A DNA stretch of 64,000 nt from Nitrosotalea sp. GTDB lineage: Archaea > Halobacteriota > Syntropharchaeia > Alkanophagales > Methanospirareceae. Positions 3,447 through 59,790 of the stretch are shown piece by piece. The notes under the pieces are model-generated. The model had not been told where the DNA came from. It saw only the letters and a program-made list of their open reading frames with translations, and did not search any database. The stretch covers positions 17,015-81,014 of the forward strand of contig DYFG01000001.1 in the NCBI GenBank assembly GCA_020725315.1. The letters run 5' to 3'. The stretch's first letter is position 1, and each line of letters begins with the position of its first letter. The position numbers and the translations under genes are program-made.

Positions 3447-4397
3447 ATGTCAGTAGTTCCGTACAAAAAGAAAGATACTGCACTAGAAGTCCTGCTAGGC
3501 TCTCTAGACTCTATGTCATCTAGGGTGGCCTACAAGGGGGCAGTTACCTCATTTATCCGTTGGTATCAGCAGACAGGGCAGGCAGACGCCTATCGTGGTG
3601 TGCTGGCGTGGAAGGCGTATATGCGAGACGATCTAGGGCTTGCAGCAGCTACTATCAACGCCAAGCTGTCGGCGGTGCGTCGTTACTTTGCTACGGCAGC
3701 GTCCCTTAACCTGATTGATGCACGTATGGCTACTGCTATTCAGGGGATTGGGAACGTTGCCAGCGAAGGAAAACGTCTTGCCACGTGGCTTAGCAAAGAG
3801 AAGGCGACCGAGCTTCTTAACCTGCCTGATGTAGAAACTCCTACAGGTAGTCGAGACTACGCTATCCTGAGTTTGTTGGTAGGCGTGGCCCTTCGTCGTG
3901 GAGAGCTAATTTCTTTGACCTGGGGGCAGTTTGAGAAAGTAGAAGATAGTGGTGGAGTGTTTTGGATCATCCGTGATCTCCGCCGCAAGCGAAATCGTAC
4001 TCAATCAATCCCCGTACCAGGGTGGACGATTGATGCCCTGCTCCATTATGCCAGTTTTTTACCAGAAGATAAGAAAACTTTTAACGGTCGCGTGTTCTTG
4101 TCTTACGTGAATAATGAGTGGGGAAACTCAATCTCTGAGAAAGCAATCTATAACATTGTCTCGCAGTACGGAGAGAAGTTGGGTGTGCCAGAACTTGCCC
4201 CTCACGACCTTCGCCGTACCTGGGCGGCACTAGCTTATAAAGGGAATGCTGATCTACTAGCTATTCAGGAAACGTTGGGACATTCAAATATTGAAACGAC
4301 CCGTCGTTATCTAGCTGAACTTTCTGTATTTGAAAATGACTCAGTGTATAAAACTGGGCTTGACAACCCGAACAGAAGCTTGTACAATGATAGTTGA
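3447..4397 (+). CDS. int: tyrosine recombinase / phage integrase family protein
   Basis: C-terminal catalytic region APHDLRRTW ... LGHSNIETTRRYL (H-x-x-R ... Y). Strong RBS GAAAGGAG upstream of the ATG. Confidence 0.85.
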   Translation: MSVVPYKKKDTALEVLLGSLDSMSSRVAYKGAVTSFIRWYQQTGQADAYRGVLAWKAYMRDDLGLAAATINAKLSAVRRYFATAASLNLIDARMATAIQGIGNVASEGKRLATWLSKEKATELLNLPDVETPTGSRDYAILSLLVGVALRRGELISLTWGQFEKVEDSGGVFWIIRDLRRKRNRTQSIPVPGWTIDALLHYASFLPEDKKTFNGRVFLSYVNNEWGNSISEKAIYNIVSQYGEKLGVPELAPHDLRRTWAALAYKGNADLLAIQETLGHSNIETTRRYLAELSVFENDSVYKTGLDNPNRSLYNDS

Positions 4398-9553: not shown

Positions 9554-10422
9554 TAAATTCCTTGATACCGATCATGCCACGTAAAAGAATAGGTAGGGGA
9601 ACCAGAGGTAAAACCAAAGACAAATCGGTTTCGCCCATTATTAGCTTGTGGGGCAGGTCGGAAATTAACATTCATCAAACTAGAACTGGGTGTAATATAG
9701 CTGATTAATGAAATATTTGATTCTTTTAAATAGATTTCTTTCTCTGCACCGCTGAGAGACACAACCAGCGTTTCATAGCTGGGGACGGTATAAACAACAT
9801 AAACAAAGTAACCAGTATCTACATTGTAGATACTCACGTCAGTAAAGGGACCAAGTATTTCTATGTCTGGTCCAGTGTCCCACGTTCCTACATAATTAAT
9901 ATCAAAGACGTTACTAGGAGAACTGTCAGAGTTGGTAAGGACATGTTTATTAGGATCGAAAATGATAGGATCGTAAGCAGTAAATTCCATGTCTTCCTGA
10001 ATGGAAAATTCATCCCACGCATTGGGGTTGTCATAAACCATTCCGCGAGTAAAAAACCCTTTGACAGATCGATATTTTCTTTCTCCGTCTTCCAAATAGA
10101 TCAGTCGTAGCTCTCCCGGCTCTGGATAGTCATAATCGGTTCTGCTAACACGCGCAGCATCAATCAAATTGCGACGAATTGCCCAATACATATCACGACA
10201 CCCACCGTTGGTTCGTAGCGTGAATCGTATCTTACGTTCCTGCATACGGACATTCGTCACCGTGTTGCCGTGTTGGAAGGGGGAGTGGGTAGTCATAAAC
10301 TCCTGCTTTCCGGCTCCCCAACCCGTCATATCAAACACCATTGACCGACGCCCATTAACTAAATTAAGCGTTTCCCCGTCTGGTGTAATATATTGTAGCT
10401 TGAATGGAATGTTTAGTCCCAT
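9553..10422 (-). CDS. distal tail protein (Dit), siphovirus tail component
   Basis: 289-aa gene immediately downstream of, and overlapping, the tape measure gene. Position and size fit Dit. Confidence 0.5.
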   Translation of the reverse strand: MGLNIPFKLQYITPDGETLNLVNGRRSMVFDMTGWGAGKQEFMTTHSPFQHGNTVTNVRMQERKIRFTLRTNGGCRDMYWAIRRNLIDAARVSRTDYDYPEPGELRLIYLEDGERKYRSVKGFFTRGMVYDNPNAWDEFSIQEDMEFTAYDPIIFDPNKHVLTNSDSSPSNVFDINYVGTWDTGPDIEILGPFTDVSIYNVDTGYFVYVVYTVPSYETLVVSLSGAEKEIYLKESNISLISYITPSSSLMNVNFRPAPQANNGRNRFVFGFTSGSPTYSFTWHDRYQGI

Positions 10423-13400
10423 GTCACTAACCTACCCTTAATTGACCGCAAGGTTCTGTCAATAACATACGCTGCCTCGTCTTCTGTAGACATAGTGACA
10501 CCCGAAACCGTAGTGTTGAGGTTGGTAGTTGTCGTTGAAGTTGTCTGTGGTTGGGTATTAACTATTATCTGGTTCACTGGTGGAATAAGCGGCGAGCCAG
10601 TAAATGCACTTCCTATAGTTGAAGCCGCACTAGCAGTCCGTTGTGCTGCTGAAATCATAGCTGCCTGTTGTGCCTGTTGGTACGCTAGTTGTGCCTGCAT
10701 TTGTGAGTTTTGAACCGTCTGCATGTAACCTTGAATTTGGAAAACCTGCATCCTAATCATATTCATTACGGAAGTAATTTGGCTAGCAGCATTTATAAAT
10801 ATATTAACCATAGCAGAAACTACACTGTTTAGATTAGGTAAGAAGGTACTGATACCCTGAGCCAAGCCTGCAATTACATCGGCACCTATGTCTCTATACA
10901 CCAAAGAAGGAGAGCCAATACGAAGAGCATTTTTTGTGCCCGTAGTCAGATCATTACCTATTAATATGCCGTTTAGTTCTGCTATTTGTCTGGTTACTAA
11001 TATGCCAGTTTCCAGGCCCATAGCAAGCCCCTCAGAAATCTGGATACCATGATCTCTAAACTTCTGTAGAAGTGCCTTTCCTTGTGCGCGAGTAGGGGCA
11101 AGTCCCGCCATAAGAGCCTCTACTGCCTGTTCCCACTCGGCTAGATCACCCATCCCCCCGCTAGAGGTTATGGGGGGTAGGACAGTTTTACCAGAAAGAA
11201 GTTTATCTAGTTCTCCAACAGCCCGTTCCCAATCTCCCTCTTTAATAGCTTTAACAAAGGCAGGAGTTAAAGCATCCTGAATACCGTCTACTATAGCGGC
11301 AGCTATTTCTGAACCAATACGCCTAAACGTTGGTGCATTTTCAGTAATCCACCCCTCTAAGGAACGAAGCATCCCATCAAAATGAAACTTTAGCCCCTGC
11401 CAATCCCCGCTGCCTTCCCACAAATAAGAAAGTAGTTCCCCTATCTTAGAAAGTGCATCATTAAAGGCGTTTTTAATGGTGTTTTTAGTTTCCTCAGAAG
11501 ATAGATAGGTGGATATATTTTCTATAAGCGACTTTATAGCCCCCAAAATGCCTGGGAACTGTAGTGTTTCAGGCTCTACAGTAGAAATGGTTTCTTCTAT
11601 AGGGATCATTATTGATTCCCCAGGCCAAACATAATACCCCTCAAACAACTTGTTGTTTGCTGCTATAATTTTGTTTACACTTGTGTTATGCTTACGAGCA
11701 ATATCAAGAAGGTTATCGCCTTCTTTAGCGGTGTAAGATAGCATAGAGGTAACAGTTTTTTCTACTGGTCGCTGTATGGTTACTGCTTTTCCAAACAAAA
11801 TAGAATCAACTACAGAGGCAAAAGCGCCCCACAAAACTGTGGCAGCATCTATCAGTAAATCTTTACCAGTAGTTTTGAGCCAGCTACTTGTTTTTTCTAT
11901 GGCAGTAGATAGTGCGGGTTTTATTTTATCTTCCCACAGTAAAGTAGCTCCCGCCAGTAAGAAATCCCATACACCAGACAGTTTATTACCAAGCTCTGTT
12001 AGCAGACCCTCAATACCGCCCTCGTTATAAGCCTTTACTAAATCAGCAATAGCGCCAGTAATACGGCCTACCACATCCGCCACTAGAGTAAATCCACGAA
12101 TAGCGTATTCTAGTAGTGTGGCTACTATCTCCCCTAACTTCTCTCCGGCGCGTGAAATACCGCTGTCTGTTCCAGGTTCAAGAGTCTTGTAGAAATCATT
12201 AACATCCTCTTTTCCCTTACCAAAAACATTATCAAATAGCCTGCCTATCTCTGATAGTGTTTTTGAGATCGTAGGCACGAGGCTTTTCACAGCAGAAATA
12301 ATACCGTCAAACCCACTGGTCCACCCCTCAAAAAACCCCTCTAAGAACTCGGAGATTACGGTGACAAGAGATATAATCCGCTCTGATGTACTTCCAAAGG
12401 CGTTGTTAATTGATTCTCCACCAGAAACAACCTCTACTATTCGCCTTACTAGCGTCCCTACGGACTTAGCAATTTGAATAACCCAAAAGGTAGCAGTACC
12501 TAGTGCATAAGAGAATTTTCTTGCGTGTTCTTCACTTGCGCCTAACGCCTTAGCAATGCCCAAGATACCCGATTCCCTACCACTTCCAAGACTCCCACCA
12601 GAAGTTAAAAGGAGCAGGGCACGTTCTAATCCCTCGTTTCTAAGATCATCAACGAAAGTAGAGAAAGCAGTTTTCATGGAAGACAAAACGCCTTCCCAAT
12701 TTTTAATGGCTTGCGAGATTACTTTAGGAGCAAAGAGAAGGGTAAAGGCAACACCTATCCCCGCTAAAATAAGCGGTATTCTAGAAACTATACCTAACAA
12801 ACCGCTAAACAAGCCCTTTGCTAGTCCCGGCAGAAAAGATAGTATGATTTTAGGTAAACGAATTACTTCTTTAGCTACACCACCAAATACAGAAAATGCC
12901 GTTTGTCCTAAAACTTTAAAGAGTCCAGTAATAAAAGATACAGCAGGACCTAGTACAGTTTTTAATAGTGCAGAAATTAATCGTATTGGGGCAGGAAGGA
13001 AGTTGAATAGGAATTTTGCAGTATTTAATAACCCACCAAACGCCTTTCCTATTAAATTAGGTATAAACAACAAGCCTGCCTTGACAACTCTGGAAACTGT
13101 TGAAATTCCTTTCTGAATGGGGCCTAAAATCGTAGTCTCAAACAACAACTTAACTGTAGTAAAAGCGTCTTTTAAAGGATTAACAACCGCCCCGACGAGT
13201 CCACCAAACAGATTTTTAAACACACCGGAAATTCTTCCAAAAACGGAAGTTGTGCCCACGCTAAGTTTCTTAAGTTGCGGTGTTAATGAGGGAAGGGTAA
13301 GTGCCGTAGACATAACAGTACCCAAGATGCGGAACCCCCCCACAGAGTTTGCAACTAGCTGAATAAGAGAACCAAATACAATAAGTAACGGACCTATTGC

Positions 13401-25959: not shown

Positions 25960-26154
25960 ATGACAGCTAAACAGTTTTTATATGTGTTTATTGTTTTGCT
26001 TTTGATCATAGCGTTTTTAGTGGGCATTACTGATGTTATTTTTGCTATTCTAGGATTCATGTTTGGCGGTGCTTTTATTATTTTAGACAGACAAGAAAAG
26101 ATATGGGTTATGCGAATCAACACAGATGTTCACGAAAGGGGTAACGATGATTGA
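25960..26154 (+). CDS. small hydrophobic membrane protein (2 TM)
   Basis: 64 aa, FLYVFIVLLLIIAFLVGITDVIFAILGFMFGGAFIIL. AT-rich like the phage backbone. Confidence 0.4.
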   Translation: MTAKQFLYVFIVLLLIIAFLVGITDVIFAILGFMFGGAFIILDRQEKIWVMRINTDVHERGNDD

Positions 26155-26515
26155 CCAGTTGGAATGTCCCGTAGCAGCCCCCAAGCTGCTCAAGGCGAAA
26201 TCAACTGTCGTGCTTTGCTCCAACTGCAAAGCGTGGATCACTCGCTATCCGACTTTTCTCGGATATGACGACATGGATCACTGTGAGCGATGCGGTTGCA
26301 CCAGCGTCATTATGCGCGAGGGCCGTCCCTATGGTCCGAAATCGGGCTTGTGGGATTGGATCGTCGCTGAGTTTCGCGAAGTGTTCTCCCACCTCGACAC
26401 GTGGGAGTTCGAGTCCGTTATCTGTGATCCGCCAATCGAGTCGCTCGACTGGAAGGCCATTGACGACTGGTTCAATGAAAACGACTTCCACCGTGCGCCT
26501 AGAACAGTGGAATAG
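26126..26515 (+). CDS. hypothetical Cys/His-containing protein (GC-rich island; start possibly ATG at 26147)
   Basis: 129-aa ORF with CPV ... CSNC ... HCERCGC. GC is clearly above backbone. Confidence 0.4.
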   Translation: MFTKGVTMIDQLECPVAAPKLLKAKSTVVLCSNCKAWITRYPTFLGYDDMDHCERCGCTSVIMREGRPYGPKSGLWDWIVAEFREVFSHLDTWEFESVICDPPIESLDWKAIDDWFNENDFHRAPRTVE

Positions 26516-26518
26516 GTT

Positions 26519-26770
26519 ATGCGAATAGGGGAACACGAAATGAACGCAGCAGAAATTGAACAAAAGCTTGAGCAGTTAGAGCGCAAGCTTGCCCAAGCAG
26601 AGTCGGAACAAGAGAAACTAATCTCCATCATCATGCAAGAAACGGATGTATGCCTGTTTGGTGGCGGCGCTATGCGGGACGGACTCCCCCGCCGCAACAG
26701 TTGCCGCTTTGGGCATCCAGGCTGTGCGTGCGCTGATTGGATTGACGCGCACCGACCAGATAACGTATGA
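26519..26770 (+). CDS. hypothetical coiled-coil protein (GC-rich island)
   Basis: 83 aa, AEIEQKLEQLERKLAQAESEQEKL. Confidence 0.3.
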   Translation: MRIGEHEMNAAEIEQKLEQLERKLAQAESEQEKLISIIMQETDVCLFGGGAMRDGLPRRNSCRFGHPGCACADWIDAHRPDNV

Positions 26771-26807
26771 GAAGGCAGCTACCGGAAATCTATAGGAGAT
26801 GTGGTTA

Positions 26808-27068
26808 ATGCCCACCCTTTACTACCATCCCCGCCGAGGGGGAAAGGCGACGAAAGTGGCAGCAAACAGACTGGCAGTATTGGACACCATTCGAGAGCGC
26901 ACAGAAGCAGAGACACCGCCGGAATGGATCAAGCCGCTGCTGATCATTGAGGCGCTGGTGACTGAGATTGACGCGCTCAAATCTGAGATCGAACTGCTGC
27001 GTGCCGAACTGGGCAACCGTCCCGCCGAGGGCGCCAAGCCTGCGGACGTGTGGCCTGACCGCTGGTAG
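26808..27068 (+). CDS. hypothetical protein (GC-rich island; start taken at the ATG 9 nt after RBS TAGGAGA)
   Basis: 86 aa with C-terminal coiled coil EIDALKSEIELLRAEL. Confidence 0.35.
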   Translation: MPTLYYHPRRGGKATKVAANRLAVLDTIRERTEAETPPEWIKPLLIIEALVTEIDALKSEIELLRAELGNRPAEGAKPADVWPDRW

Positions 27069-27119
27069 CCGCATCTGTGCACAGTTCACACACAGCGCCC
27101 CGGTGTGTGCCGGGGCGCG
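27069..27119 (+). repeat. copy 1 of a repeated roughly 50-nt element: CCGCATCTGTGCACAGTT plus GC-rich hairpin
   Basis: Palindromic core CTGTGCACAG, then a 9-bp stem GCGCCCCGG/CCGGGGCGC at 27095-27118. It abuts the stop codon of the preceding ORF. Confidence 0.45.
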
Positions 27120-27146
27120 TCACTTATCAGAATAGGAGTACTAAAC

Positions 27147-27644
27147 ATGAAAGGACTGGAGATGAAAAAGTACCAGCTTCGGCGGGCAATTCGGCAGACC
27201 TGCATTCTTTCGCCACCGCCGCCCCACAGCGAAACGGAGAAATACGACGCTTGGACGCTAGGGCGGCTGATCGACTACACAGCGAAGGAACTTGAGAAGC
27301 AGTTGCCCGCCTACGTCCGCAAGATGGAGTCGGTTGCTCATCCCGATCCGTCTCGCCCGCTGGTTGTCATGCCGCGAACTACATCCGCCATCCCGCTCAC
27401 CGCCGACGGATCGCCTGCCTTTCCCGAACCAGAACGGATACGCCGATACGACACGGTGCTGCCGAAACGGTTTGTTGTACGCTCCGGGGATGGCCCGGCG
27501 CTCAATGTCTTCATCGGCTATTCATCGCTCATGGAGACGGTCTACTTCTTTCGCGTCAAACGGTTACTCGACGAGGCGACGATCCGCCGCCCAACATGGA
27601 AGGGGCGCAAAACACCCCTCAACCGCGAACTGCCCTACGCCTGA
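27147..27644 (+). CDS. hypothetical protein (GC-rich island)
   Basis: About 165 aa from the ATG at 27147 (RBS AGGAG). No motifs. Confidence 0.4.
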   Translation: MKGLEMKKYQLRRAIRQTCILSPPPPHSETEKYDAWTLGRLIDYTAKELEKQLPAYVRKMESVAHPDPSRPLVVMPRTTSAIPLTADGSPAFPEPERIRRYDTVLPKRFVVRSGDGPALNVFIGYSSLMETVYFFRVKRLLDEATIRRPTWKGRKTPLNRELPYA

Positions 27645-27697
27645 CCGCATCTGTAAACAGTTGCCAGATAGAGCGCCCCAACCGGGGCGCTTTTTGC
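27645..27697 (+). terminator. copy 2 of the repeated element (CCGCATCTGTAAACAGTT) plus a rho-independent terminator
   Basis: Stem AGCGCCCC (27672-27679), loop AACC, GGGGCGCT, then TTTTT at 27691-27695. Confidence 0.55.
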
Positions 27698-27752
27698 TTA
27701 TGCGAATCGACCGTTGCAAAACCCACCAGTCTCTTATGAGTGATGTCATCAG

Positions 27753-30155
27753 TTAACTCTCGCTGTAGGATACCCATGCGCTAATGAGAGATTGCAGCGT
27801 CGCAAAATGTGCGTCTGCAATTGCCTGTTTCGTGCGAAGGTCCGCGATTGATGAGACAACCACCGCTCTAATCCCATCAATCGCCTCGCGGATTTGGTCA
27901 GTAGTGACACCCAGGTTGGTGCTAAGGTCCAAGCTGGTCCATTGGGTCGGATTAGTGCCAGTGAGTTCTTTGGGTGACATAAAATAACTGTTCGTTACCG
28001 CAGAGGTCACAGAGCCGGTTAAAGAGCCGATTAGCGTATCGGTTATTGTCTGATTGCTGCCAGTGCCTGCCAGGACCGCGATCCCGGTACTCGACCATAC
28101 AATATTTTTTTGAAAGGTGCCGTTGTCCCCATCAATGACCATGCCACACAGCACGTCGCCCAGGAAGTTTCCTCGCACCTTACCATAGGTAGGATCGTGC
28201 CAAAAATGGATAGCATATCCCTCTCCGCCGATGAAGATATTTTCTTCGATCAGCGGCTCATCTTCCGCCTGGGTTATGTCATGATTAGTGTAATAAAGCG
28301 AGTGGTAATGGACTCCGCTACCGCACTCAATGAAACGGTTGCGATAGATATGGACGCGGGTAAAGTCTGAACCAAGACACTCCCAAAAACCGAAGAAGGT
28401 GTTGTACCGGACTACGCAATCAGGCTTTACATGCACGTGCTGGTTGGGGGTTGCAGGTGCAGCAGCCTTAGCTCCCCCGATCCAACACCCTTCCAGCGTC
28501 GCCCCGCTATTTACAACTACAGTGGGCGCATAGCCATCAGTGCGAGTGATTATGGGCTTTGCTCCTGCTGCTGCCTTGAGCGTGCCGCCCGCTGGAATGT
28601 TAATATGATAGCCGTTTACCGTAGTGGCCGGGTCGAGGGCATAGATTCCGTCGGCAAGCTCTACGATTCCCCCTGCCGCCAATTCCGCATAAGGGAAAAC
28701 TTGATCGCCAGTCACGGACATCGGCTCCATCAAGACGGGGTCGGGCTGGGAGACGCCGCTACCGGGGCCAAGATAAAGCTGTGGGTTAGCGTAGGCCGAA
28801 GACGAGATCGGATAACTTTGCAACCCTTCAGGTGATGTTTCTGCCGGGTATACCGCCGCGATTGCCGTTGCGGTATCCTGGTGCGACACATCCAAGATAG
28901 CACCGCGCGACGTCACCGTTTTTCCTGAGCGCGATAAAAAGCGGTGTTGTGTGCCTTCGCACATCACGTCGATGCCGGTCGGCGTCCCCACGTTCAGCAC
29001 ATCGGTCCATCCAGCAGGCACAATTTCAGAGCCGCCAACAACTTGTCGCACACAATAATCCCAGGCCGTATTTGTCTCGTTGCGCCGTATAATGGCTCTC
29101 CACTTATTATCTTGATCACCAATGCGGTAGTCGATGGATACTTCTTCGCCTGCCGATGGGGCGTCATTGAGTACAAACGTAAAACGATGTATTGCGTCGG
29201 CTGACGCTTCATACTGCGATCCAGACACTGGCTCGGTTTCGTAGACGGTGGCAAGCCCGGCGTCCGAATTGAACGGCGCTCCAAGAGCAAGCACCGCAAT
29301 TGAATCCATCTCGAATTTGTCGTTGGTAGATGTTACTCTGGTATACACATCTCCAAGGTTGTAATCATAGTATCGCGGTTTAATTAAGGTGAGTTTTGAG
29401 GTGGTGCAATTAATGTATAATACCAAAGTGTCGGTATAAATCACCGCAAACCGACGCTGGTCGCTGTAATAGCCAGAGAAAGTCTCTAAAAAGGAGAGAT
29501 AGGATGGTGAGATACGGTCTACCGGCACTCCCAACTTTTCGTTGCTAAATCCAACGCGCATGTTAGACCCGCCAGCGGTATAGTTCGTGCTAAATAATAG
29601 AGCTAACCCAGGGACAAATGGGGTTGGGCTTGCGGTAGTCACTGATATGTTGGTGGTGGCAGTTTTCGCCAGTTTGCCATTGGCAATCGAGAGGTCAGGC
29701 GCTCCCGCATCGGAAAATTCTAAGACGCCGGGACCGGGTTCACTTGTGCGTGGTGTCGTTATCGGAGCCGCATCAGCGGTTGTAAACTCATCACGCAAAA
29801 TATAGAGATCGACGGCAAGGCTAAACTGAGTTGCCGCCTTGTTGGCATTACCAGCGAGATCGGTACACACCGCAGCAGGAATGTCTACGGTGACTATGCC
29901 AACATCAATCGTTGGTGTGATCGTCGCTGTCCAGACGGTGTTATCTGCCGTGACAAAGTTTGACATCACGCAGTTGCCGAGCTTCACATCGCTGTACGCA
30001 AATCCGGTAACTTCATCGTCAAACGTGATAATAATCGTAAACGGCCCTTTGGTGGGCGCAACCGCATCGCTCGTAATCGTTACGGTCGGCCCGCTCACCC
30101 CCTGCGCCCCCCGGAACGCCGGATTGTTCAGCAGCAAACCCATCATTCCCGGCAT
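27753..30155 (-). CDS. large virion-associated protein: N-terminal Ig-like region, C-terminal right-handed parallel beta-helix (pectate-lyase fold); putative depolymerase or fibre
   Basis: 800 aa. C-terminal PbH1-like repeats NIFIGGEGYAIHFWHD..GNFLGDVLCGMVIDGDNGTFQKNIVWSSTGIAV. GC-rich relative to the backbone. Confidence 0.5.
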   Translation of the reverse strand: MPGMMGLLLNNPAFRGAQGVSGPTVTITSDAVAPTKGPFTIIITFDDEVTGFAYSDVKLGNCVMSNFVTADNTVWTATITPTIDVGIVTVDIPAAVCTDLAGNANKAATQFSLAVDLYILRDEFTTADAAPITTPRTSEPGPGVLEFSDAGAPDLSIANGKLAKTATTNISVTTASPTPFVPGLALLFSTNYTAGGSNMRVGFSNEKLGVPVDRISPSYLSFLETFSGYYSDQRRFAVIYTDTLVLYINCTTSKLTLIKPRYYDYNLGDVYTRVTSTNDKFEMDSIAVLALGAPFNSDAGLATVYETEPVSGSQYEASADAIHRFTFVLNDAPSAGEEVSIDYRIGDQDNKWRAIIRRNETNTAWDYCVRQVVGGSEIVPAGWTDVLNVGTPTGIDVMCEGTQHRFLSRSGKTVTSRGAILDVSHQDTATAIAAVYPAETSPEGLQSYPISSSAYANPQLYLGPGSGVSQPDPVLMEPMSVTGDQVFPYAELAAGGIVELADGIYALDPATTVNGYHINIPAGGTLKAAAGAKPIITRTDGYAPTVVVNSGATLEGCWIGGAKAAAPATPNQHVHVKPDCVVRYNTFFGFWECLGSDFTRVHIYRNRFIECGSGVHYHSLYYTNHDITQAEDEPLIEENIFIGGEGYAIHFWHDPTYGKVRGNFLGDVLCGMVIDGDNGTFQKNIVWSSTGIAVLAGTGSNQTITDTLIGSLTGSVTSAVTNSYFMSPKELTGTNPTQWTSLDLSTNLGVTTDQIREAIDGIRAVVVSSIADLRTKQAIADAHFATLQSLISAWVSYSES

Positions 30156-30207
30156 ATCGTCACCTCGCCCTCGCCTTTATTCGTTATGAGAATGGTCATT
30201 CTAAACA

Positions 30208-43448: not shown

Positions 43449-44780
43449 GGTGACTGCTCCCCACGGCTAAAGCCGGGGGCTTCTAGGACCGGAGTCCAGG
43501 CTCGCCAGCCCGCGAGCCAAAATGTTCAGAGATGCATTGAGATCGCGGTCCAGTTTCAGGCCGCAGTAAGGACAGTCGTGGACACGCACACTCAAGTCTT
43601 TCGGAACCACCGCGCCGCAGCCGGAGCATTCTTGCGTTGTGCCTCTGGGGTTAACGCGCAGCACAGCACGACCGGCACTTTCAGCCTTGTACGTGGTGAA
43701 CTGCACGAACTGGCCCCAGGCCACGTCCGCGATATTCCGGTTGACAACCCGGTTTCCGTTGGACTGCATGTCCGCGATGTCCAACTTCTCAAAGACGATC
43801 AGGCCGAAGCGGTTGACGAGCTTGCGGCTCTCCTGGTGCGCGAAGTCGGCGCGCCGGTTGGTGGCGCGCTGGTAGGCATGGTTGAGCGCGCGCAGCACCT
43901 TGCGGCGCTCCGGCGAGCCTTTAGCGAACTGTTCTTTCTTGCGCTGCAAGCGGGCGATGTCCGCCGCATCGCGTTTCATCCAGCACTGGCGCGGGATACT
44001 GTCGCCGGTACTCAGCATGGCGAACGTCTTCAGGCCGAGATCCACGCCCACCACTTCAGGCGACGGGGGCAGAGGCGCGGCGTCTACTTCGCACGAAAAG
44101 CAGGCGTACCAGTTGCCTACGCTATCGCGCCGGATGATGACTGTTTTGGGTGTGCCTTCCAGGGGGCGATGCAGCTTGATTTTCACGGCTCCGATTTTCG
44201 AGAGCGTGAGCCGGTTACCGTCCAACTTCACCCCATTACCACACTGCGGATAGGTGAAACTGTCGTACCAGCCACGTCCCTTGAAGCGCGGGTAGCCGGG
44301 CTTCTCACCTGCCTTGACGCGGCGAAAGAATGCCTGGAACGCCAGATCGACGCGTGTGCACGCTTCTTGAAGCGACTGCGAAAAGGCGTTATTGAGAAAT
44401 GGCTGCTCGGCTTTCCAGCCGGGGATCAGCTTAATCGTATCGAAGCGCGTCAGCGTTTCGCGGTTAATGTCCCAGGCATCGCGGCGCACTTCAAGCGTCG
44501 TGTTGTAAACCCACCGACAAGCATCCAATGCGCGCAGCAAGGCGGTGCGTTGGGCAGAAGTAGGAAAGAGGCGGTACTTGTAGGTCAATCGCATAGCCCG
44601 ATTATACCATTTATGCTACAGGTTCACAAACATATGGCGCACCTTATATCCCCCTGCCTTCAGGCAGAGGTTTTACGGCGCTTTTCCGATAAAGCTGAGT
44701 TCTCCCCAGGAGCATCATCACAACACGCCCAACAGGAAGCCCCACACACCGGACACTCTTCTACCACATCACAACTCAAC
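43440..44780 (-). mobile_element. IS200/IS605-family insertion carrying only tnpB (IS1341-like), GC-rich
   Basis: GC is about 60% or more against a roughly 45% backbone. Right-end hairpin near 43455-43480 (GGCTAAAGCCGGGGGCTTC). Left-end-side hairpin CCTGCCTTCAGGCAGAGG near 44655. Confidence 0.65.
43467..44594 (-). CDS. tnpB: TnpB (OrfB_IS605) RNA-guided endonuclease-family transposase accessory protein
   Basis: N-terminus MRLTYKYRLFPTSAQRTALLRALDACRWVYN. C-terminal zinc finger CSGCGAVVPKD...CPYCGLKLDRDLNASLNI. Confidence 0.9.
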   Translation of the reverse strand: MRLTYKYRLFPTSAQRTALLRALDACRWVYNTTLEVRRDAWDINRETLTRFDTIKLIPGWKAEQPFLNNAFSQSLQEACTRVDLAFQAFFRRVKAGEKPGYPRFKGRGWYDSFTYPQCGNGVKLDGNRLTLSKIGAVKIKLHRPLEGTPKTVIIRRDSVGNWYACFSCEVDAAPLPPSPEVVGVDLGLKTFAMLSTGDSIPRQCWMKRDAADIARLQRKKEQFAKGSPERRKVLRALNHAYQRATNRRADFAHQESRKLVNRFGLIVFEKLDIADMQSNGNRVVNRNIADVAWGQFVQFTTYKAESAGRAVLRVNPRGTTQECSGCGAVVPKDLSVRVHDCPYCGLKLDRDLNASLNILARGLASLDSGPRSPRL

Positions 44781-46617: not shown

Positions 46618-46620
46618 GCA

Positions 46621-46868
46621 ATGTGGGATAACTTTGGCAAATGTGGGATAATGTGGGATTCCCCTAACAAAGACAAATAATGAGTCACTTACAGACTCTT
46701 TTACTTTAGATCATACACAGACTCTAAATACAGACTCTATAATAATAAATACTAGAATCTTTATATTATAAGTATTTATAAAGAGTCTTTTAGAGTCTTT
46801 AAGATTCAAAATTTTAGGGTTTTTCAAAATCCCACTTTCCCACTTCAGTATACCAAACTATCCCACAT
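46621..46868. promoter_or_regulatory. operator and repeat array in the divergent promoter region
   Basis: ATGTGGGATA occurs three times direct at 46621-46660 and once inverted at 46859-46868 (TATCCCACAT). AGACTCT occurs at 46693, 46719 and 46733, and inverted as AGAGTCT at 46783 and 46793. Confidence 0.5.
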
Positions 46869-46880
46869 TTTACAAGACTC

Positions 46881-46909
46881 TTGACAAAAATTTACGTTTG
46901 TGTTATTCT
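46881..46909 (+). promoter_or_regulatory. rightward promoter, TTGACA-17 nt-TATTCT, preceded by AGACTC
   Basis: TTGACA at 46881-46886, 17-nt spacer, TATTCT at 46904-46909. GAGGAG RBS and ATG at 46931 follow. Confidence 0.45.
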
Positions 46910-49516: not shown

Positions 49517-49988
49517 GCGCCTGCTCCTTTCGTAACCCGCGATGACACCGAGCGCGTTGCGGTGTAAAAAGAGAGTAGAAAAGCAAGCACTAGATTACGC
49601 ATATCAATAAGGAATTGTAGTCCTACATAAACCAAAGTAATAGCCATATATCCCCCATAAATAAGAAGAAATCAGAAACTATTCGAAAGATTAATCAGCA
49701 TATCCCAACTTAATTAACAAAAAAGCAAGGGCATATATAATCCCAAAAGCAGTCAAAAGCTCTAGCATAATGAGAGGAAAGCAAATAAACAAAACAATAA
49801 GACACAGAATACCGCCCACAAAGCAAGATACAAGAAGGGCCGAAAGAAAGTCGTTGTCTAACATCACACTCTCCTTTCTTACAAGTATACATTACAAGAG
49901 AAATAAAGTCAATAGACGATACAAGAGGGCCTACTAAGAAAAAGATAAGGGGTACATAAAAGAAAAGAGAGGAACGATATGGGTGGAT

Positions 49989-50018
49989 TAGTTAAGTTTA
50001 AGAGAAAAAAAAATAATT
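49989..50018. repeat. direct repeat copy A (TTAGTTAAGTTTAAGAGAAAAA..TAATTT) downstream of the 218-aa gene
   Basis: Near-identical to copy B at 50766-50794. Confidence 0.5.
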
Positions 50019-50674
50019 TAATGTACTTTACGTAATTTAACATATTTATGTTTGTAAAATTTTCCTACGGGGGTGAATCCTAAATCAAGCATGTTTTGAT
50101 GTGTGAGATTTACCTTACCCCGTTTACGGGTTTGGGAGATTCCATTTTTAGTATAAATCCATGTGGGTGTGGTTTTTCCTACGTAAGTCCAGCCTGAGCT
50201 TTTATAAACTTCTCCGGTATGTCCTTGCCATGTGTCCGCATACGTAACAAGACATTTCCACCTTGTATCTAACATTTTTATAGATTTACTCAGCATAAAG
50301 GACGCAGAGTTTTTAGGGGCAGAAGGAATCAAAACCATTCGTGAAAGAGAGAGAACACGATTAGGTTCTTCATAAGTAGCCTCTGCCGCACGCCGAGTAG
50401 GGGGCAACCACCAAGTTACTCCAAACAAAACATCAAACTCTTTATGAAACAATCCAAAACAAGCAACACACAGTTTACTAACACTTCTGGTATAGTGATG
50501 TTGAACTATAAGAGTTCTTCCTAATGAGGGATCAATAGGACGTACTTCCCAGGACTCTTTATGTAAGGGGCCTACAGGCAACATATTTTTCTCCTTTAAA
50601 ATTTCCAAGTAAATTTCTGAATATTTGGACTTTCTAGGTTCTGGTATATCTTCCTTGTTAATAATGGTAATCAT
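50018..50674 (-). CDS. hypothetical protein (QHHYTRS ... TYADTWQGHTGEVYKSSGW)
   Basis: 218-aa ORF flanked by about 30-bp direct repeats. Function unknown. Confidence 0.4.
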   Translation of the reverse strand: MITIINKEDIPEPRKSKYSEIYLEILKEKNMLPVGPLHKESWEVRPIDPSLGRTLIVQHHYTRSVSKLCVACFGLFHKEFDVLFGVTWWLPPTRRAAEATYEEPNRVLSLSRMVLIPSAPKNSASFMLSKSIKMLDTRWKCLVTYADTWQGHTGEVYKSSGWTYVGKTTPTWIYTKNGISQTRKRGKVNLTHQNMLDLGFTPVGKFYKHKYVKLRKVH

Positions 50675-50765
50675 TGTTTTTTTTTTCTACAGAAACGATA
50701 TTTATCAATATAGCACAGTACAATAAGAATGTCAATAATCAGGCGGTTTAAGTATGACTGAGGGT

Positions 50766-50794
50766 TAGTTAAGTTTAAGAGAAAAATAATTTCA
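50766..50794. repeat. direct repeat copy B (TTAGTTAAGTTTAAGAGAAAAATAATTT) upstream of the 218-aa gene
   Basis: Pairs with copy A at 49989-50018. Confidence 0.5.
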
Positions 50795-51017
50795 AAAAAA
50801 TTTTTTGTATAAAAATTGTCCAGCGCGCACATCACCGCCGCGAAACCGAACGCGGCTGGCGGGTTCGTTAGCTATTAGCACTAAGACTACAGTTACCATA
50901 ATATGCCGTGTTCAGTTTAGAGTTAACTAAGAGTACAGACACCGTTATACTACCTCTTAAAAACCTATCCACACGTTCCCTAGAATCATAATTTTAGGAA
51001 GTGCTAACCGGGAGATG

Positions 51018-51270
51018 GAATTTAGGAACACCTAAAATAAAAATTAGGCAGACCAAAATAAAAATTAGGCAGACCTAAAATAAAACTTAGGATAATCTTA
51101 TAACTAATTTTGGTCTGATCCAATCAGAAGCTTTCGGCGCGCCGAATTGTCGCAAGTCTGTTTAATGCTCTATTTTCTTATTTTCTGCCATATTCCCTAA
51201 CTTGATTTTTAGGTTTGCCTAATCCTCTTATTGGCTATTCCCTCATTTGATTCTTAGGTTTGCCTAATCT
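51018..51270. repeat. iteron-like array around a palindrome. About three direct copies of AAAATAAAAATTAGGCAGACC at 51033-51097; a 14-bp perfect palindrome TTCGGCGCGCCGAA at 51133-51146; two inverted copies TTTTTAGGTTTGCCTAAT at 51205-51268
   Basis: Seen directly. The arrangement looks like a replication origin, partition site or multi-operator region. Confidence 0.55.
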
Positions 51271-51510
51271 TTAATACCTTATTATATTGCCAGTCTTTGG
51301 ATAGTTCACATGTGAACAGTATACATATACTCTATATCTCTATAAGGTTTAATTGGTTTAGATATAAACGATCTTATCGCGCTTTGGCGTTACAATCTGG
51401 CTATTATCACGAGTCTTTATTTTCGAGAATAGGTTACGCTTTAACGCGGATAAAATCCTATTATCGATCCTGTGTTTTAACATTCGCAATTTTTGGGAAT
51501 GGAGCAAATT

Positions 51511-51587
51511 AGAATGTTAAAAAAGTTTGAATCTGCTAACCTTTGAGGGAAAAACGAATGTTAAAATGGTTTGAATCTGGTTAGAAT
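51511..51587. repeat. two copies of an about 30-nt repeat, GAATGTTAAAA(A/T)GTTTGAATCTG(C/G)TTA, spaced 44 bp
   Basis: AGAATGTTAAAAAAGTTTGAATCTGCTAAC and CGAATGTTAAAATGGTTTGAATCTGGTTAG. Confidence 0.5.
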
Positions 51588-51599
51588 ATCTGTAAGATA

Positions 51600-52560
51600 C
51601 TTGAACACCTAGCTAAATCTGTGATAGGATGTAAGCGCAATTGAGCAAGCGCACATTAAAAATAGCGCCGGCGCGAAAGTCTGGGGCGATGCAGGAAGCG
51701 CCAAGAGATGAGCTTACCCTCAGGCGAGTAGCAATGACGCAATACGCATACGCAACCTTCGGGGGGCTTTCGTCTAGCCAACGAAAGCTGAGCCGTACGG
51801 GGGCTGTAGGAAACTAGTAGACTCGTCCAACCTGAGATCGCACGAGTCTAGAGTAAATCCTAATGGTTGGGGGCCGGGCGGCCCCTCGCTACTAACTGGA
51901 TCCCATTAGCCTTACTCTACTAGCCAAGTGAGCAGATAGCCATATCTGTTATGTCACGCTTGGCTAGCCTAGTTTCCGGCGGCGCAAGCGATTAGAGACC
52001 TCTCTAATACGCACGCGCACCTATAGCACGGCAAACCAAGCGCTGAAAACCTGTTAGGTCGATGAAAGCATACTACACTAGCCAATAGCAGAAGTCTAGA
52101 CAAACAGCCTAGAATCGGCGGGATCGAAAGTAGCCTAATCAATGGCTAGCCTAGCCGATAGTGCATACTGGTGAAAGCGATGACAATGCTAGCTAGTGCA
52201 AGTGCCTAAACGCTGACAGTGATTAATCTAAGTGCGATGCTAAGCCTGGCTATAGTTGTTTTGCTTGTTTTCCCCAACACTCCTCGCAGATAAACCGTAC
52301 CGCACGATATTAGATGATCAATTGCTTAACTCCCGGCGGCTAGGTTATAGGCTATCCTATACCCCAGTCTAAGGGACCAAGTTAGGCATGAGAGACTCTA
52401 TTATCTGGTATAGTCGACTCTGTTAGGTTATGCTAGGCCAAAGCTTAGCTGATCCGCTATAGTGGGATAGCACACTAGGATTAGTTAGGCTAGGCTAGTA
52501 TCTCCCATATCTTATAGTGCCGATAAAATAGGTTATCGGCACTTAGGCTATAGGAGACCA
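51600..52560. other. ORF-free, hairpin-dense, CTAG-rich noncoding region (candidate large structured ncRNA or cis-acting DNA element)
   Basis: No ORF of 60 aa or more in any frame across 51513-52547. 19 CTAG tetramers counted in 51601-52500. Many perfect short hairpins, for example GTGCCGATAA-AATAGG-TTATCGGCAC near 52517-52544 and CTAGACTCGT..ACGAGTCTAG near 51817-51850. Confidence 0.3.
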
Positions 52561-52584
52561 TAACCATACAAAGGAGAAAGGGCG

Positions 52585-52824
52585 ATGAAGCTACAGAAGG
52601 TACAGAAGCTACTGACGGGCGAGTACCGGGAATTGTACGGGGGGCATGGTGTGTGGTGGGTATCCGTGAGGTGGGAAGAGGGGCGGCTCATCAGTGAGTG
52701 GTGGGCAGACGGATTACCGGCGGTGAGCAGACCGGTGACTAAGGCTGAGGGCGCGGATGATGTGGAGAGGATAATTCGGTCGGTGTGCGCAGACTTCCGC
52801 AAGGTGCGGGGTCTGGCTTGGTAG
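52585..52824 (+). CDS. hypothetical Trp-rich protein (GC-rich)
   Basis: 79 aa, RBS AAGGAGAAAGGG, GC about 58%. Confidence 0.35.
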   Translation: MKLQKVQKLLTGEYRELYGGHGVWWVSVRWEEGRLISEWWADGLPAVSRPVTKAEGADDVERIIRSVCADFRKVRGLAW

Positions 52825-52849
52825 ATAGATTAGCATACAGGAGATCAAA

Positions 52850-53107
52850 ATGGCACACTATTTGGTCGGTACGAATACCCGCGGGTATTTGCCCGTGGGC
52901 GATCCCATCGAATGCGAGACATTGATCGAAGCTAAGCAAGCAGCACGACAGGAAGCCCTTTACTTGGCTGAAGAGACCAATAATAAGATCGAAGTTTGGT
53001 CATCTCTCAACAGTATCACCAAGCGCGATCTTGTGAACTATGGTGTACCGATTACTTACGCGGTAATCGGAGACATCGAAGTTTGGATCGCCATTGAGTC
53101 GGATTAG
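52850..53107 (+). CDS. hypothetical protein
   Basis: 85-aa ORF followed by a hairpin. Confidence 0.35.
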   Translation: MAHYLVGTNTRGYLPVGDPIECETLIEAKQAARQEALYLAEETNNKIEVWSSLNSITKRDLVNYGVPITYAVIGDIEVWIAIESD

Positions 53108-58192: not shown

Positions 58193-59790
58193 AGCTAAAG
58201 CGGGGAGCTTCCCAGGGCACGCTCGCCGCAACCGGCCACGTTACGCTCTGGCGGCCCCGTCCGGGCCGGGTTGACCGCAAGCATCAGGATATTCCGAGGT
58301 TACACTGCCCATCACCGCGATCCATCCGTTGCAACAGCATCGCCGTTCTGAGCTTCGCGGGACACGTTTGACCCACTGGCCTGCGTTTCGTCCCGCGCGC
58401 CCGGTACAGGCGCTTTCAACCCTAAGCGAAGGATGTTCTTCGCTGCGTTCACGTCGGCGTTTTCTTCATGCCCGCACGAAAGACACCGGAACCGCGCTTG
58501 TGTTTTACGATTTTCGGCGTCCACTACGCCGCACTCGGAGCACGTTTGACTCGTGTACGCTGGCGGCACCTTGACCAACTGGACGCCGCGCTCGGCACAC
58601 TTGTATTCGAGCAGTTGCCAGAAGGTCGCAAAGCCGGCATCGTGCGCGCTCATGGCGAGACGCTTGTTTTCGATCATGAAGTCCAGCGTCAGATCTTCGA
58701 TGGCGATCAGCCCGTAGGTGCTCGTGAGCCAGTCGGTGACGGTGTGCCAGAAATACCACCGCTGTTGTCTGATTCGGTCCTCCAGCTTGCGCAACTGGCG
58801 CTCGGTTTCCTGCATGCGCGTGGACTTGTGCCAGATGAACACGCCGGGTTTGGGCGTGCCGTCCGCATTGTAGTTCTGCGGGTTGTTGGCGCGGCGCTGG
58901 CGGTCCAGCTTGCGCATAAGCACGCGGCGCTTCTGCTGCCCTTCCCGATACCAGCGCGGGTTATCAATGGTCGTGCCGTCGCTGAGCGCCAGCAGGTAGA
59001 CCATGCCCACGTCAATGCCAACGGCGGGCTTCTGTGAAGGTTCCGGCTCGGCGTCGGGTATTTCAAGCTGGAGGGCGGCGTACCACTGGCCGCGCCGGTT
59101 GCGCAGCACGAGCACGTACTTGATGACGCTCAGGGGCGGCAGATCGCGGTGAAAGCGCAGACGGATGTCACCACAGTTGGCGATGCGCAGCTTAGCCCAC
59201 CCGTCCGACGTTTCGATGAGTTTGCACCCACTACCGTACTTGTAACCCAGGCTGCGGAAGTGGTAGCGCCCCTTGAAGCGCGGGAAGCCCGGTGTTTCGC
59301 CCGCCTTGACGCGGCGGAAGAACGCTTTATAGGCTTTGTCCAGGCGGCGCATAAGGTCATCTACCGTGTCATAGGGCAGCAGCCCGAACGTGTCCGGTTC
59401 CTCTTTGCGCAGTGCGCACCAGTGATCACGCAGGTCATACAGGCTGATGCTCTCGCCGCGTTCCTCATACGCTTCCTTGCGCATGGCGAGGGCACCGTTG
59501 TAGATTTTGCGCCCCTGCCACAGCAGGAAGTCGAACGTCCGCGCTTGCGCCCTCGTCGGATACAGCCGGTACTTGTACGTCCGAATCATCGCCGCCCCAG
59601 AACAGAACACCCCGCCGAAGATTGTGTGTTGTCTAGGCACACGCGCGCGGCAGGGTGTTCCGTCCACAATCATAACGCACGTATCATGCCTAGACAACAT
59701 TAGTATACCGCACATTCGTTCGCAAAGCAAAATCAGAAAGGAGGCAAGCGCCATTCCCAACCGGGCTAAAACCCGGTGTCCCCTGGCGCA
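58193..59790 (-). mobile_element. second IS200/IS605-family tnpB-only insertion, GC-rich, abutting the ardC stop
   Basis: Right-end hairpin CTCCCCGC-TAAAGCTAAA-GCGGGGAG spans the ardC stop (58180-58210). Left-end-side 11-bp inverted repeat TTGTCTAGGCA..TGCCTAGACAA at 59626-59697, and hairpin CCGGGCTAAAACCCGG at 59759-59775. GC is over 60%. Confidence 0.6.
58312..59589 (-). CDS. tnpB: TnpB (OrfB_IS605) RNA-guided endonuclease family (start at internal Met, MIRTYKYRLYPT)
   Basis: N-terminus MIRTYKYRLYPTRAQARTF. C-terminal zinc finger CSECGVVDAENR...CLSCGHEENADVNAAKNI. Listed ORF is 58312..59760. Confidence 0.85.
   Translation of the reverse strand: MIRTYKYRLYPTRAQARTFDFLLWQGRKIYNGALAMRKEAYEERGESISLYDLRDHWCALRKEEPDTFGLLPYDTVDDLMRRLDKAYKAFFRRVKAGETPGFPRFKGRYHFRSLGYKYGSGCKLIETSDGWAKLRIANCGDIRLRFHRDLPPLSVIKYVLVLRNRRGQWYAALQLEIPDAEPEPSQKPAVGIDVGMVYLLALSDGTTIDNPRWYREGQQKRRVLMRKLDRQRRANNPQNYNADGTPKPGVFIWHKSTRMQETERQLRKLEDRIRQQRWYFWHTVTDWLTSTYGLIAIEDLTLDFMIENKRLAMSAHDAGFATFWQLLEYKCAERGVQLVKVPPAYTSQTCSECGVVDAENRKTQARFRCLSCGHEENADVNAAKNILRLGLKAPVPGARDETQASGSNVSREAQNGDAVATDGSR

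Follow-up and report, generated by a model that had tools for sequence, protein, structure and literature searches.

A lattice of DtxR-type dyads in the early control region of an uncultivated phage: a putative operator array

In the genome of an uncultivated phage, a gap of 1.9 kb free of open reading frames (ORFs), from 50675 to 52584, separates a leftward Mom-like DNA-modification gene from a rightward ORF of 79 aa, and it holds an array of short repeats in both orientations; what might bind these repeats is the question addressed here. The window, that is the whole stretch of 64,000 nucleotides analysed (GenBank assembly GCA_020725315.1, contig DYFG01000001.1, positions 17,015 to 81,014 of the forward strand), corresponds to 64 kb of a ~82-kb metagenomic siphovirus-like genome (JGI 3300029892, contig Ga0246235_100118). 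A sequence-only reading of this DNA had described an iteron array arranged symmetrically around a 14-bp GC palindrome at 51018-51270 and had proposed an origin, a partition site or a multi-operator. Our analysis favours the multi-operator, since the dyads, their flanks and their 21-22 bp spacing match DtxR-regulon operators, while the origin and partition parts of that proposal are supported by no specific test. As the best reading, which we put forward tentatively, the array would be a set of operators through which a metal-dependent repressor of the DtxR family, supplied by the host, controls early transcription.

All the repeat elements listed by the earlier reading were present, including the palindrome TTCGGCGCGCCGAA at 51133-51146, and the gene-free gap between divergent genes was likewise borne out. 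In the 64 kb there are exactly four copies of the motif TTAGGCARACC, two on the plus strand (51044 and 51065) and two on the minus strand (51212 and 51257). The repeated unit is better described, nevertheless, as a 14-bp dyad, TTAGG-N4-CCTAA, set on a 21-23 bp lattice. Allowing up to one mismatch, the window contains seven matches to this dyad (~2.4 expected; one of 100 shuffled sequences reached seven), six of which fall within 50994-51267, and elsewhere in the 82 kb there is a single one-mismatch match, located inside a gene. Five sites are strong (51022, 51044, 51065, 51209 and 51254, comprising four exact dyads and one with a single mismatch), and weaker sites in register with them lie at 50994, 51087, 51110 and 51133. 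The features of the array are given below with scores from the position weight matrix (PWM) described later in the text, together with the corresponding sequences in two relatives: L133, a Logan contig of 1.5 kb with a 70% identical Mom protein, which covers 50675 to ~51500, and L238, a 1.9-kb European Nucleotide Archive (ENA) contig that starts at window position 51143.

50975-51146, conserved core, ~90% identical to L133, as compared with ~55% in the flanking non-coding DNA
50994-51007, site A, TTAGGAAGTGCTAA, weak (PWM 6.5), with the left half-site alone conserved
51022-51035, site B, TTAGGAACACCTAA, strong (PWM 21.2); TTAGGCACGCCTAA in L133, with the half-sites kept and the spacer altered
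51044-51057, site C, TTAGGCAGACCAAA, strong (PWM 14.4), a tandem 21-bp duplicate of the site D unit that is absent from L133
51065-51078, site D, TTAGGCAGACCTAA, strong (PWM 22.8, the best score in the window)
51087-51100, site E, TTAGGATAATCTTA, degenerate; TTAGGATAACCTTA in L133, which is nearer to the consensus
51110-51123, site F position, TTGGTCTGATCCAA, degenerate and overlapping a conserved dyad, TCTGAyCyAATCAGA; in L133 (TTAGTCTGACCTAA) a site with one mismatch
51133-51146, site G position, TTCGGCGCGCCGAA, the GC palindrome (PWM 1.8), whose palindromy is not kept in L133; L238 starts at CCGAATTG
51171-51186, plus strand, two tandem copies of TATTTTCT between the two arms, diverged to TATTTTCTTTGTTTTG in L238
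51191-51224, minus strand, right-arm unit 1, consisting of a half-site CCTAA (51196-51200), N8 and the strong site TTAGGTTTGCCTAA (51209-51222, PWM 21.7)
51236-51269, minus strand, right-arm unit 2, with the strong site TTAGGTTTGCCTAA at 51254-51267 (PWM 19.7)

From A to G the sites follow one another at steps of 28, 22, 21, 22, 23 and 23 bp, measured start to start. The GC palindrome has the same 5-4-5 layout (TTCGG-N4-CCGAA) and sits in register at the seventh lattice position, and therefore it is not a separate centre of symmetry. In agreement with this, the overall dyad symmetry claimed around it did not hold in the relatives, as L133 reads the non-palindromic TTCGGCACGTCTAA at this position and the right arm varies between one and two sites. 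The two 34-nt units of the right arm are 91% identical and lie 45 bp apart, and each is an inverted version of the 'full site, N8, half-site' module formed by D and E, with 74-76% complementarity over 33-39 nt, indicating that the inverted orientation is real.

Comparison with the relatives showed which parts of the array are kept. In L133 the half-sites were retained while the spacers were altered (AACA to CACG, and AATAAAAA to ACTAAAAG), the array was shorter by one whole 21-bp unit (site C), and the right arm was represented by a single site; in L238 the right arm comprised one near-perfect and one degenerate site. When up to two mismatches were allowed, L133 contained seven matches to the dyad as compared with 1.1 expected, a number reached in none of 200 shuffles. 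Both relatives thus conserve the half-sites but differ in the N4 and N8 spacers and in how many sites they have, as one would expect for binding by a conserved protein of the host. Judged from these alignments, the array is under selection at the level of the half-site, with the left arm and the centre as its constrained part, and its copy number drifts through duplication and loss of units. Further relatives were sought by other routes: a 15-mer scan of viral contigs gave chance matches only, patterns from the conserved core had no match in viral or genome contigs, and a DNA similarity search of phage and plasmid collections returned none. Among the neighbouring genes, the relatives of a 109-aa protein were on short contigs running the wrong way and of no use for comparing the array, DUF5662 was common to 80 viral contigs without synteny, and the Mom homologues P0021, P0022, P0023 and P0030 occurred in unrelated contexts.

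The conserved core was also considered as an RNA element and rejected, given the weak consensus fold (−20.5 kcal/mol over 190 nt) and the absence of covariation among copies that all share one half-site sequence; the locus is therefore an array of DNA sites. Searches of the array region against Rfam, at gathering and permissive thresholds, and for tRNAs found nothing.

We then scanned IMG/VR and 185,579 species genomes with a pattern of two TTAGG-N4-CCTAA dyads 7-9 bp apart. In IMG/VR this pattern was found at 14 loci, about 11 of them independent, as compared with one for the composition-matched control TTGAG-N4-CTCAA; a profile search found no DtxR ORF in the viral-contig stretches carrying the site pairs, and a gene common to these contigs was looked for and not found. 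The genome collection contained at least 120 loci, with the pair mostly just upstream of a start codon, and those listed belong to Acidobacteriaceae, Solirubrobacterales/Thermoleophilia, Acidimicrobiia, Gemmatimonadota, Deinococcales, Methanobacteriaceae, Bathyarchaeia and haloarchaea. Clustering the first ORF on each side of the listed genomic loci gave DtxR-family repressors and FeoA-domain proteins as the largest group (33), together with TonB-dependent-receptor-like proteins (19) and Fe3+ solute-binding proteins (9), and a ZnuA-type metal-binding protein and a ferritin-like protein were also among the neighbours. Pfam assigned the flanking proteins to Fe_dep_repress and Fe_dep_repr_C (with or without FeoA), FeoA, ZnuA and SBP_bac_1, and a profile built from 19 such repressors detected a DtxR/FeoA ORF (E<1e-5) in 28 of the 120 listed stretches, each of at most 8 kb.

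A PWM was built from the 108 sites, among the loci listed, that lie beside metal-homeostasis genes, and its five highest scores in the whole window fell at 51065, 51209, 51022, 51254 and 51044. The tandem spacing beside metal genes at the listed loci was 21 bp in 34 cases, 22 bp in 19 and 23 bp in four, and in the phage it is 22, 21 and 22 bp. The genomic sites prefer C or T at dyad position 6 and A or G at position 9 and have A/T-rich flanks, and the phage sites fit all of these preferences. Moreover, the 14-mer of site D recurs unchanged before a FeoA gene of a Methanobacteriaceae genome (L241), and the right-arm site, read as its reverse complement, precedes TonB-receptor genes in Acidobacteria. 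The phage sites are indistinguishable from sites beside DtxR-regulon genes in core, flanks and spacing.

The geometry of the dyad points in the same direction. The classical DtxR box, TTAGGTTAG(G/C)CTAACCTAA (PMC1382209), is the 5-4-5 dyad written twice with an offset of 5 bp, and therefore TTAGG-N4-CCTAA corresponds to the site of one DtxR-type dimer; sites of this single-dimer type are seen in Acidobacteria, non-coryneform Actinobacteria and archaea. The array shares with DtxR, IdeR and MntR operators the TTAGG/CCTAA half-sites in a 5-4-5 dyad, the A/T flanks, the tandem spacing of 21-23 bp, and the base preferences at dyad positions 6 (C/T) and 9 (A/G). From motif identity, site geometry and genomic association we infer a link to DtxR. 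As to the origin of the binder, no DtxR homologue was detected (best E = 0.68) in the six-frame ORFs of the window and of L125 and L220, the two contigs that cover the remainder of the genome, and no helix-turn-helix family was found in Pfam and PHROG scans of ~70 ORFs or in precomputed lists, which together cover nearly all genes. Because the phage has neither a DtxR homologue nor a recognizable repressor, a DtxR-family repressor of the host, if the host has one of this specificity, would be the likeliest binder, and the unchanged specificity in relatives whose flanks have strongly diverged makes this the most economical reading.

If this reading is right, Fe2+- or Mn2+-loaded dimers of the host DtxR-family protein would occupy adjacent lattice sites on one face of the DNA, as 21-23 bp corresponds to two helical turns. 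The bound dimers would prevent or modulate early transcription from start points at the array or close to it, and early expression, or the maintenance of a silent state, would thereby be tied to the metal status of the cell.

Several observations weigh against a DtxR-type operator array. The canonical 19-bp overlapping double box, TTAGGTTAGSCTAACCTAA, had no match with up to three mismatches, so that the array differs from DtxR operators in the absence of a double-dimer box, and it also differs in multiplicity, with five strong sites plus weaker ones as compared with two or three in the host regulons and one to three in DtxR operators. The first rightward gene lies 1.3 kb downstream of the array, and the promoter assignments described below are weak, being 9/12 matches of which the hexamer TAGAAT alone is conserved. 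Only two relatives of the array were recovered, both partial. Finally, some genomes of Bacteroidales, Kiritimatiellae, Treponema and Phycisphaerae have arrays in which the same 14-mer is repeated four to eight times; these are located between housekeeping genes and show no association with metal genes, and therefore the motif by itself is no proof of DtxR binding.

The bacterial arrays (L246, L277, L300, L310, L243, L280, L282, L306, L278 and L342) consist of 21-23-bp units that each carry TTAGG(TCGN/GAGC)CCTAA and occur in Porphyromonas gulae and Tannerella forsythia and in Kiritimatiellae, Treponema and Phycisphaeraceae genomes; they may be REP-like repeats. Another array was found in an unrelated phage contig (L227, IMG/VR 3300027887_000031), where nine dyads at 10336-10605, six on a 22-bp lattice, then an AT-rich centre and three more, occupy a divergent gap that precedes terS-terL-portal by ~430 nt; the architecture is very similar to that of the array studied here. 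The stretch of L227 that was examined does not encode DtxR.

Three other explanations have to be weighed against a host DtxR-family binder. The array could be the operator of an unrecognized phage-encoded dimeric DNA-binding protein, part of a CI/Cro-like switch whose specificity coincides with the DtxR-type half-site, which we consider doubtful. Dyads of 14 bp with spacers of 7-9 bp have the layout of lambdoid operators, and a new DNA-binding fold could go unnoticed among the early genes of the phage, most of which are orphans. RacR, the CI-like repressor of the Escherichia coli rac prophage, recognizes TTAGGC/GCCTAA and binds three such repeats in the divergent racR-ydaS gap, with a second cluster downstream of racR (PMC5700373), and in a viral contig (L228) the neighbours of three such dyads are an HTH_3 gene and a YdaS/Cro-like gene. 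The RacR sites, however, have the geometry TTAGG-N5-CCTAA at 25-26 bp, in contrast to N4 at 21-23 bp in our array, and RacR operators were dropped as the closest match because of this difference. Moreover, tblastn found no RacR, YdaS or YdaT homologue in the phage, the Pfam scans found no helix-turn-helix domain, divergent helix-turn-helix repressor and cro genes flanking the array were not found, and the 79-aa gene downstream of the array is missing from L238. Diverged relatives also share one specificity, and such constancy is unusual in phage immunity systems.

An iteron-type replication origin, the first of the functions named by the sequence-only reading, would have an initiator oligomerize on the 21-23 bp lattice and melt adjacent AT-rich DNA, possibly aided by transcription into a structured non-coding region, and would resemble the origins of Ceduovirus (c2-like) phages; we consider it unlikely here. 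The lattice is regular, with two-turn steps and at least five sites, with three or more direct repeats of 17-22 bp set about two helical turns apart it has the arrangement expected of iterons, and its copy number varies between relatives. AT-rich stretches (76% A+T) lie at 51075-51124 and 51325-51374, and a phage with genes for a DnaB-type helicase, a DnaG-type primase and PolA needs an origin. The origins of Lactococcus Ceduovirus phages are located in an ORF-free gap between early and late genes, with early promoters on its flanks (PMC7150918), and the array resembles these and lambda ori in its dyad units at about two-turn spacing, its AT-rich neighbours, its promoter-flanked ORF-free gap and the structured untranslated stretch downstream. 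Unlike in those systems, no cognate initiator was found: neither a Rep, O or DnaA-like family nor the ParB-like protein suggested by the earlier reading was present in Pfam lists covering almost the whole ~82-kb genome, and the neighbours are Mom and an orphan 79-aa ORF. The cumulative GC skew, also suggested as a check, has a local minimum at 51 kb, whereas its global minimum lies at 47 kb, and the least stable 150-300 bp are at 46.67-46.97 kb, in a second array; the array studied here ranks only 4th to 10th in duplex instability, and the skew follows gene orientation and so is not independent evidence. The A-tracts in the spacers are paired 5 bp apart and not helically phased, and the sequence and spacing of the sites have a specific and different explanation, as they match a transcription-factor family through the DtxR-regulon sites. 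The remaining explanation, another architectural DNA site, namely a partition centromere, a packaging site (pac/cos), an attP or selectively neutral tandem repeats, appears very unlikely. Two repeat clusters in opposite orientations do resemble parC/tubC centromeres and the arms of attP, the nine-site array of L227 is close upstream of terminase genes, and similar tandem arrays form intergenic repeats in some bacterial genomes. However, no ParA, ParB, ParM, ParR, TubZ, Tub or Alf was found in Pfam lists covering 43186-73441 and −7293 to 13400. The candidate integrase gene for an attP, encoding a 316-aa tyrosine recombinase that shows the catalytic Pfam domain only, is at 3447-4397, ~35 kb away on the circular map, and the core pattern had no match that could serve as attB in the 185,579 genomes, among which the host may be unsampled. 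The terminase gene lies 11 kb from the array, which speaks against pac/cos, and the conservation of the core over its flanks speaks against neutral repeats.

The second array, at 46620-46880, is also symmetric and is more elaborate; it lies in the gap from which the late leftward operon and the DUF5662 gene diverge. It contains three direct copies of AATGTGGGAT (46620, 46640 and 46650) with inverted copies at 46829 and 46860, and three copies of ACAGACTCT (46691, 46717 and 46730) with the inverted AAAGACTCT at 46782 and 46792. Its outer repeats abut the −35 hexamers of strong divergent promoters (46617-46589, minus strand, and 46881-46909, plus strand), and its centre is the least stable DNA of the window and coincides with the global minimum of cumulative GC skew. 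This second array is a better candidate for the origin than the one flagged by the earlier reading, or a candidate second control region.

A host-repressor reading also has to be placed in the gene setting of the array. Identical copies of the phage were found in three Logan assemblies, with 100% identity across 49800-52900. These assemblies differ from each other by circular permutation, which fits either a circular map or terminal redundancy. The genes are arranged in four blocks, as follows.

5.8 to 46.6 kb, minus strand, leftward structural block with the tape measure, a terminase with an intein and an 853-aa protein with a LAGLIDADG intein
46.9-48.4 kb, plus strand, small rightward block
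48.5-50.7 kb, minus strand, leftward block whose last gene is the Mom-like DNA-modification gene
50018-50674, minus strand, the Mom-like gene (Pfam Mom, 3.7e-28)
from 52585 past the end of the window, plus strand, long rightward block

Past the window, the rightward block encodes ArdC, Fic, Ro60/TROVE, a UvrD-like helicase, a DnaG-like primase, a DnaB-like helicase, PolA, the tyrosine recombinase and a RusA-like protein. The array lies ~320 nt upstream of the leftward mom gene and heads this rightward early transcription unit. The first rightward gene (52585-52824), that of the 79-aa protein, has no relative among 5.8 billion proteins, and together with its absence from L238 this suggests that it may be recent or spurious. 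No helix-turn-helix was predicted in the 79-aa protein, whose low-confidence model consists of four strands and a helix; the AlphaFold models of this protein (pLDDT 60) and of a 279-aa protein (pLDDT 50) were both of low confidence and were not used.

The clear promoters of the phage are near-consensus, TTGAC(A/T)-17-TATAxT, and are found at 50735-50707 for mom and, in the second array, at 46617-46589 and 46881-46909. The rightward operon has no promoter of that quality, and the only promoter-like candidates are in or next to the array; these are listed here together with a candidate terminator.

50981-50986, plus strand, −10-like TAGAAT, 8 nt upstream of the first TTAGG (site A), part of a TTAAAA-18-TAGAAT match (9/12) with a putative promoter function
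51260-51288, plus strand, candidate TTGCCT-17-TATATT (9/12), weak, with the −35 hexamer inside the last site and not conserved in L238 or L133
50810-50850, minus strand, candidate terminator, a GC-rich hairpin followed by a T-rich run, its position in L133 being taken by a hairpin of another sequence

The TAGAAT hexamer is identical in L133, within a conserved block of 30 nt (50977-51006). As a candidate terminator, the hairpin at 50810-50850 would insulate the mom promoter from leftward transcription coming out of the array.

Between the array and the first rightward gene, a 955-nt ORF-free stretch (51630-52584) is richer in G+C and folds far better than shuffled sequences (z = −7.6 on the plus strand and −5.95 on the minus strand). 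The homologous stretch in L238 (505-1238), which is diverged and shorter, gave a fold z of −5.9, and the stretch had no Rfam match; on the basis of these two sequences it is a candidate for a large structured leader or a non-coding RNA. Closer to the array, an AT-rich block at 51345-51600 shows ~93% identity to L238 and is conserved in part in L133. Within it, GAATGTTAAAA(A/T)(A/G)GTTTGAATCTG is found twice (51512 and 51556), together with a perfect 12-nt inverted copy, TTTTAACATTCG, at 51475, and these repeats may form a protein-binding cluster or a long-range RNA helix. A perfect 14-bp palindrome, GTTCACATGTGAAC, is found at 51305-51318, where L133 has GTTCACATCTATAC followed by a second TTCACAT. 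On the other side of the array, a direct repeat of ~34 nt (GGTTAGTTAAGTTTAAGAGAAAAA..TAATTT) at 49984-50020 and 50763-50800 flanks the Mom-like gene and its strong promoter. Each copy is just upstream of a near-consensus leftward promoter (50735-50707 and 49912-49884), and in L133 two copies are found upstream of Mom.

Some further features of the genome were recorded. The gene for a Ro60/TROVE and vWA protein of 521 aa, at 17803-20559 of L125 and ~7-9 kb past the right end of the window, is preceded by a 1.2-kb gene-free gap in which Y-RNA-like partners might be encoded, with a Fic-domain gene just upstream. Two IS605-type TnpB (OrfB) insertions, at 43467-44594 and 58312-59760, have a G+C content of 0.53-0.59 as compared with ~0.44 for the phage, which could hint at a host of higher G+C. 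Within the structural block, an island of higher G+C (0.50-0.57) at 26000-30200 encodes an 800-aa Big_12 and beta-helix protein and small ORFs on both strands, and it is possibly a receptor-binding module acquired by exchange.

Control of a phage-borne gene by host DtxR is textbook knowledge for diphtheria toxin, an accessory gene, whose tox promoter on corynephage beta is regulated by the DtxR of the host. The array described here differs in that it lies in the phage's own early control region and not before an accessory toxin gene. A second precedent is Bacillus phage GIL01, whose control depends on host LexA. GIL01 and the phage studied here both lack a CI-type repressor gene and carry sites for a host global regulator, putative ones in our case, in the early promoter region; unlike in GIL01, the sites here are those of a DtxR-type regulator family, they are far more numerous, and no accessory phage co-repressor was identified. 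What is new is that DtxR-type sites fill the early control region of a phage, in numbers that the host regulons did not show; such site pairs are also present in about ten further contigs of uncultivated phages. The locus also calls for caution, since symmetric iterons in a gap had been read as an origin and motif-guided genome scans gave a specific alternative.

A bolder proposal, which we regard as rather improbable, is that a phage with no repressor of its own uses the DtxR metal sensor of its host as the master early repressor, with loss of metal as the switch-on signal, and/or that the five to nine high-affinity sites on replicating genomes act as a sponge that titrates the repressor and de-represses iron uptake by the host; the structured stretch of 0.7-0.95 kb would then be the regulated transcript, a new large phage non-coding RNA or leader. 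If a host DtxR-family protein does bind the array, there would be a direct link between metal availability and the development of the phage.

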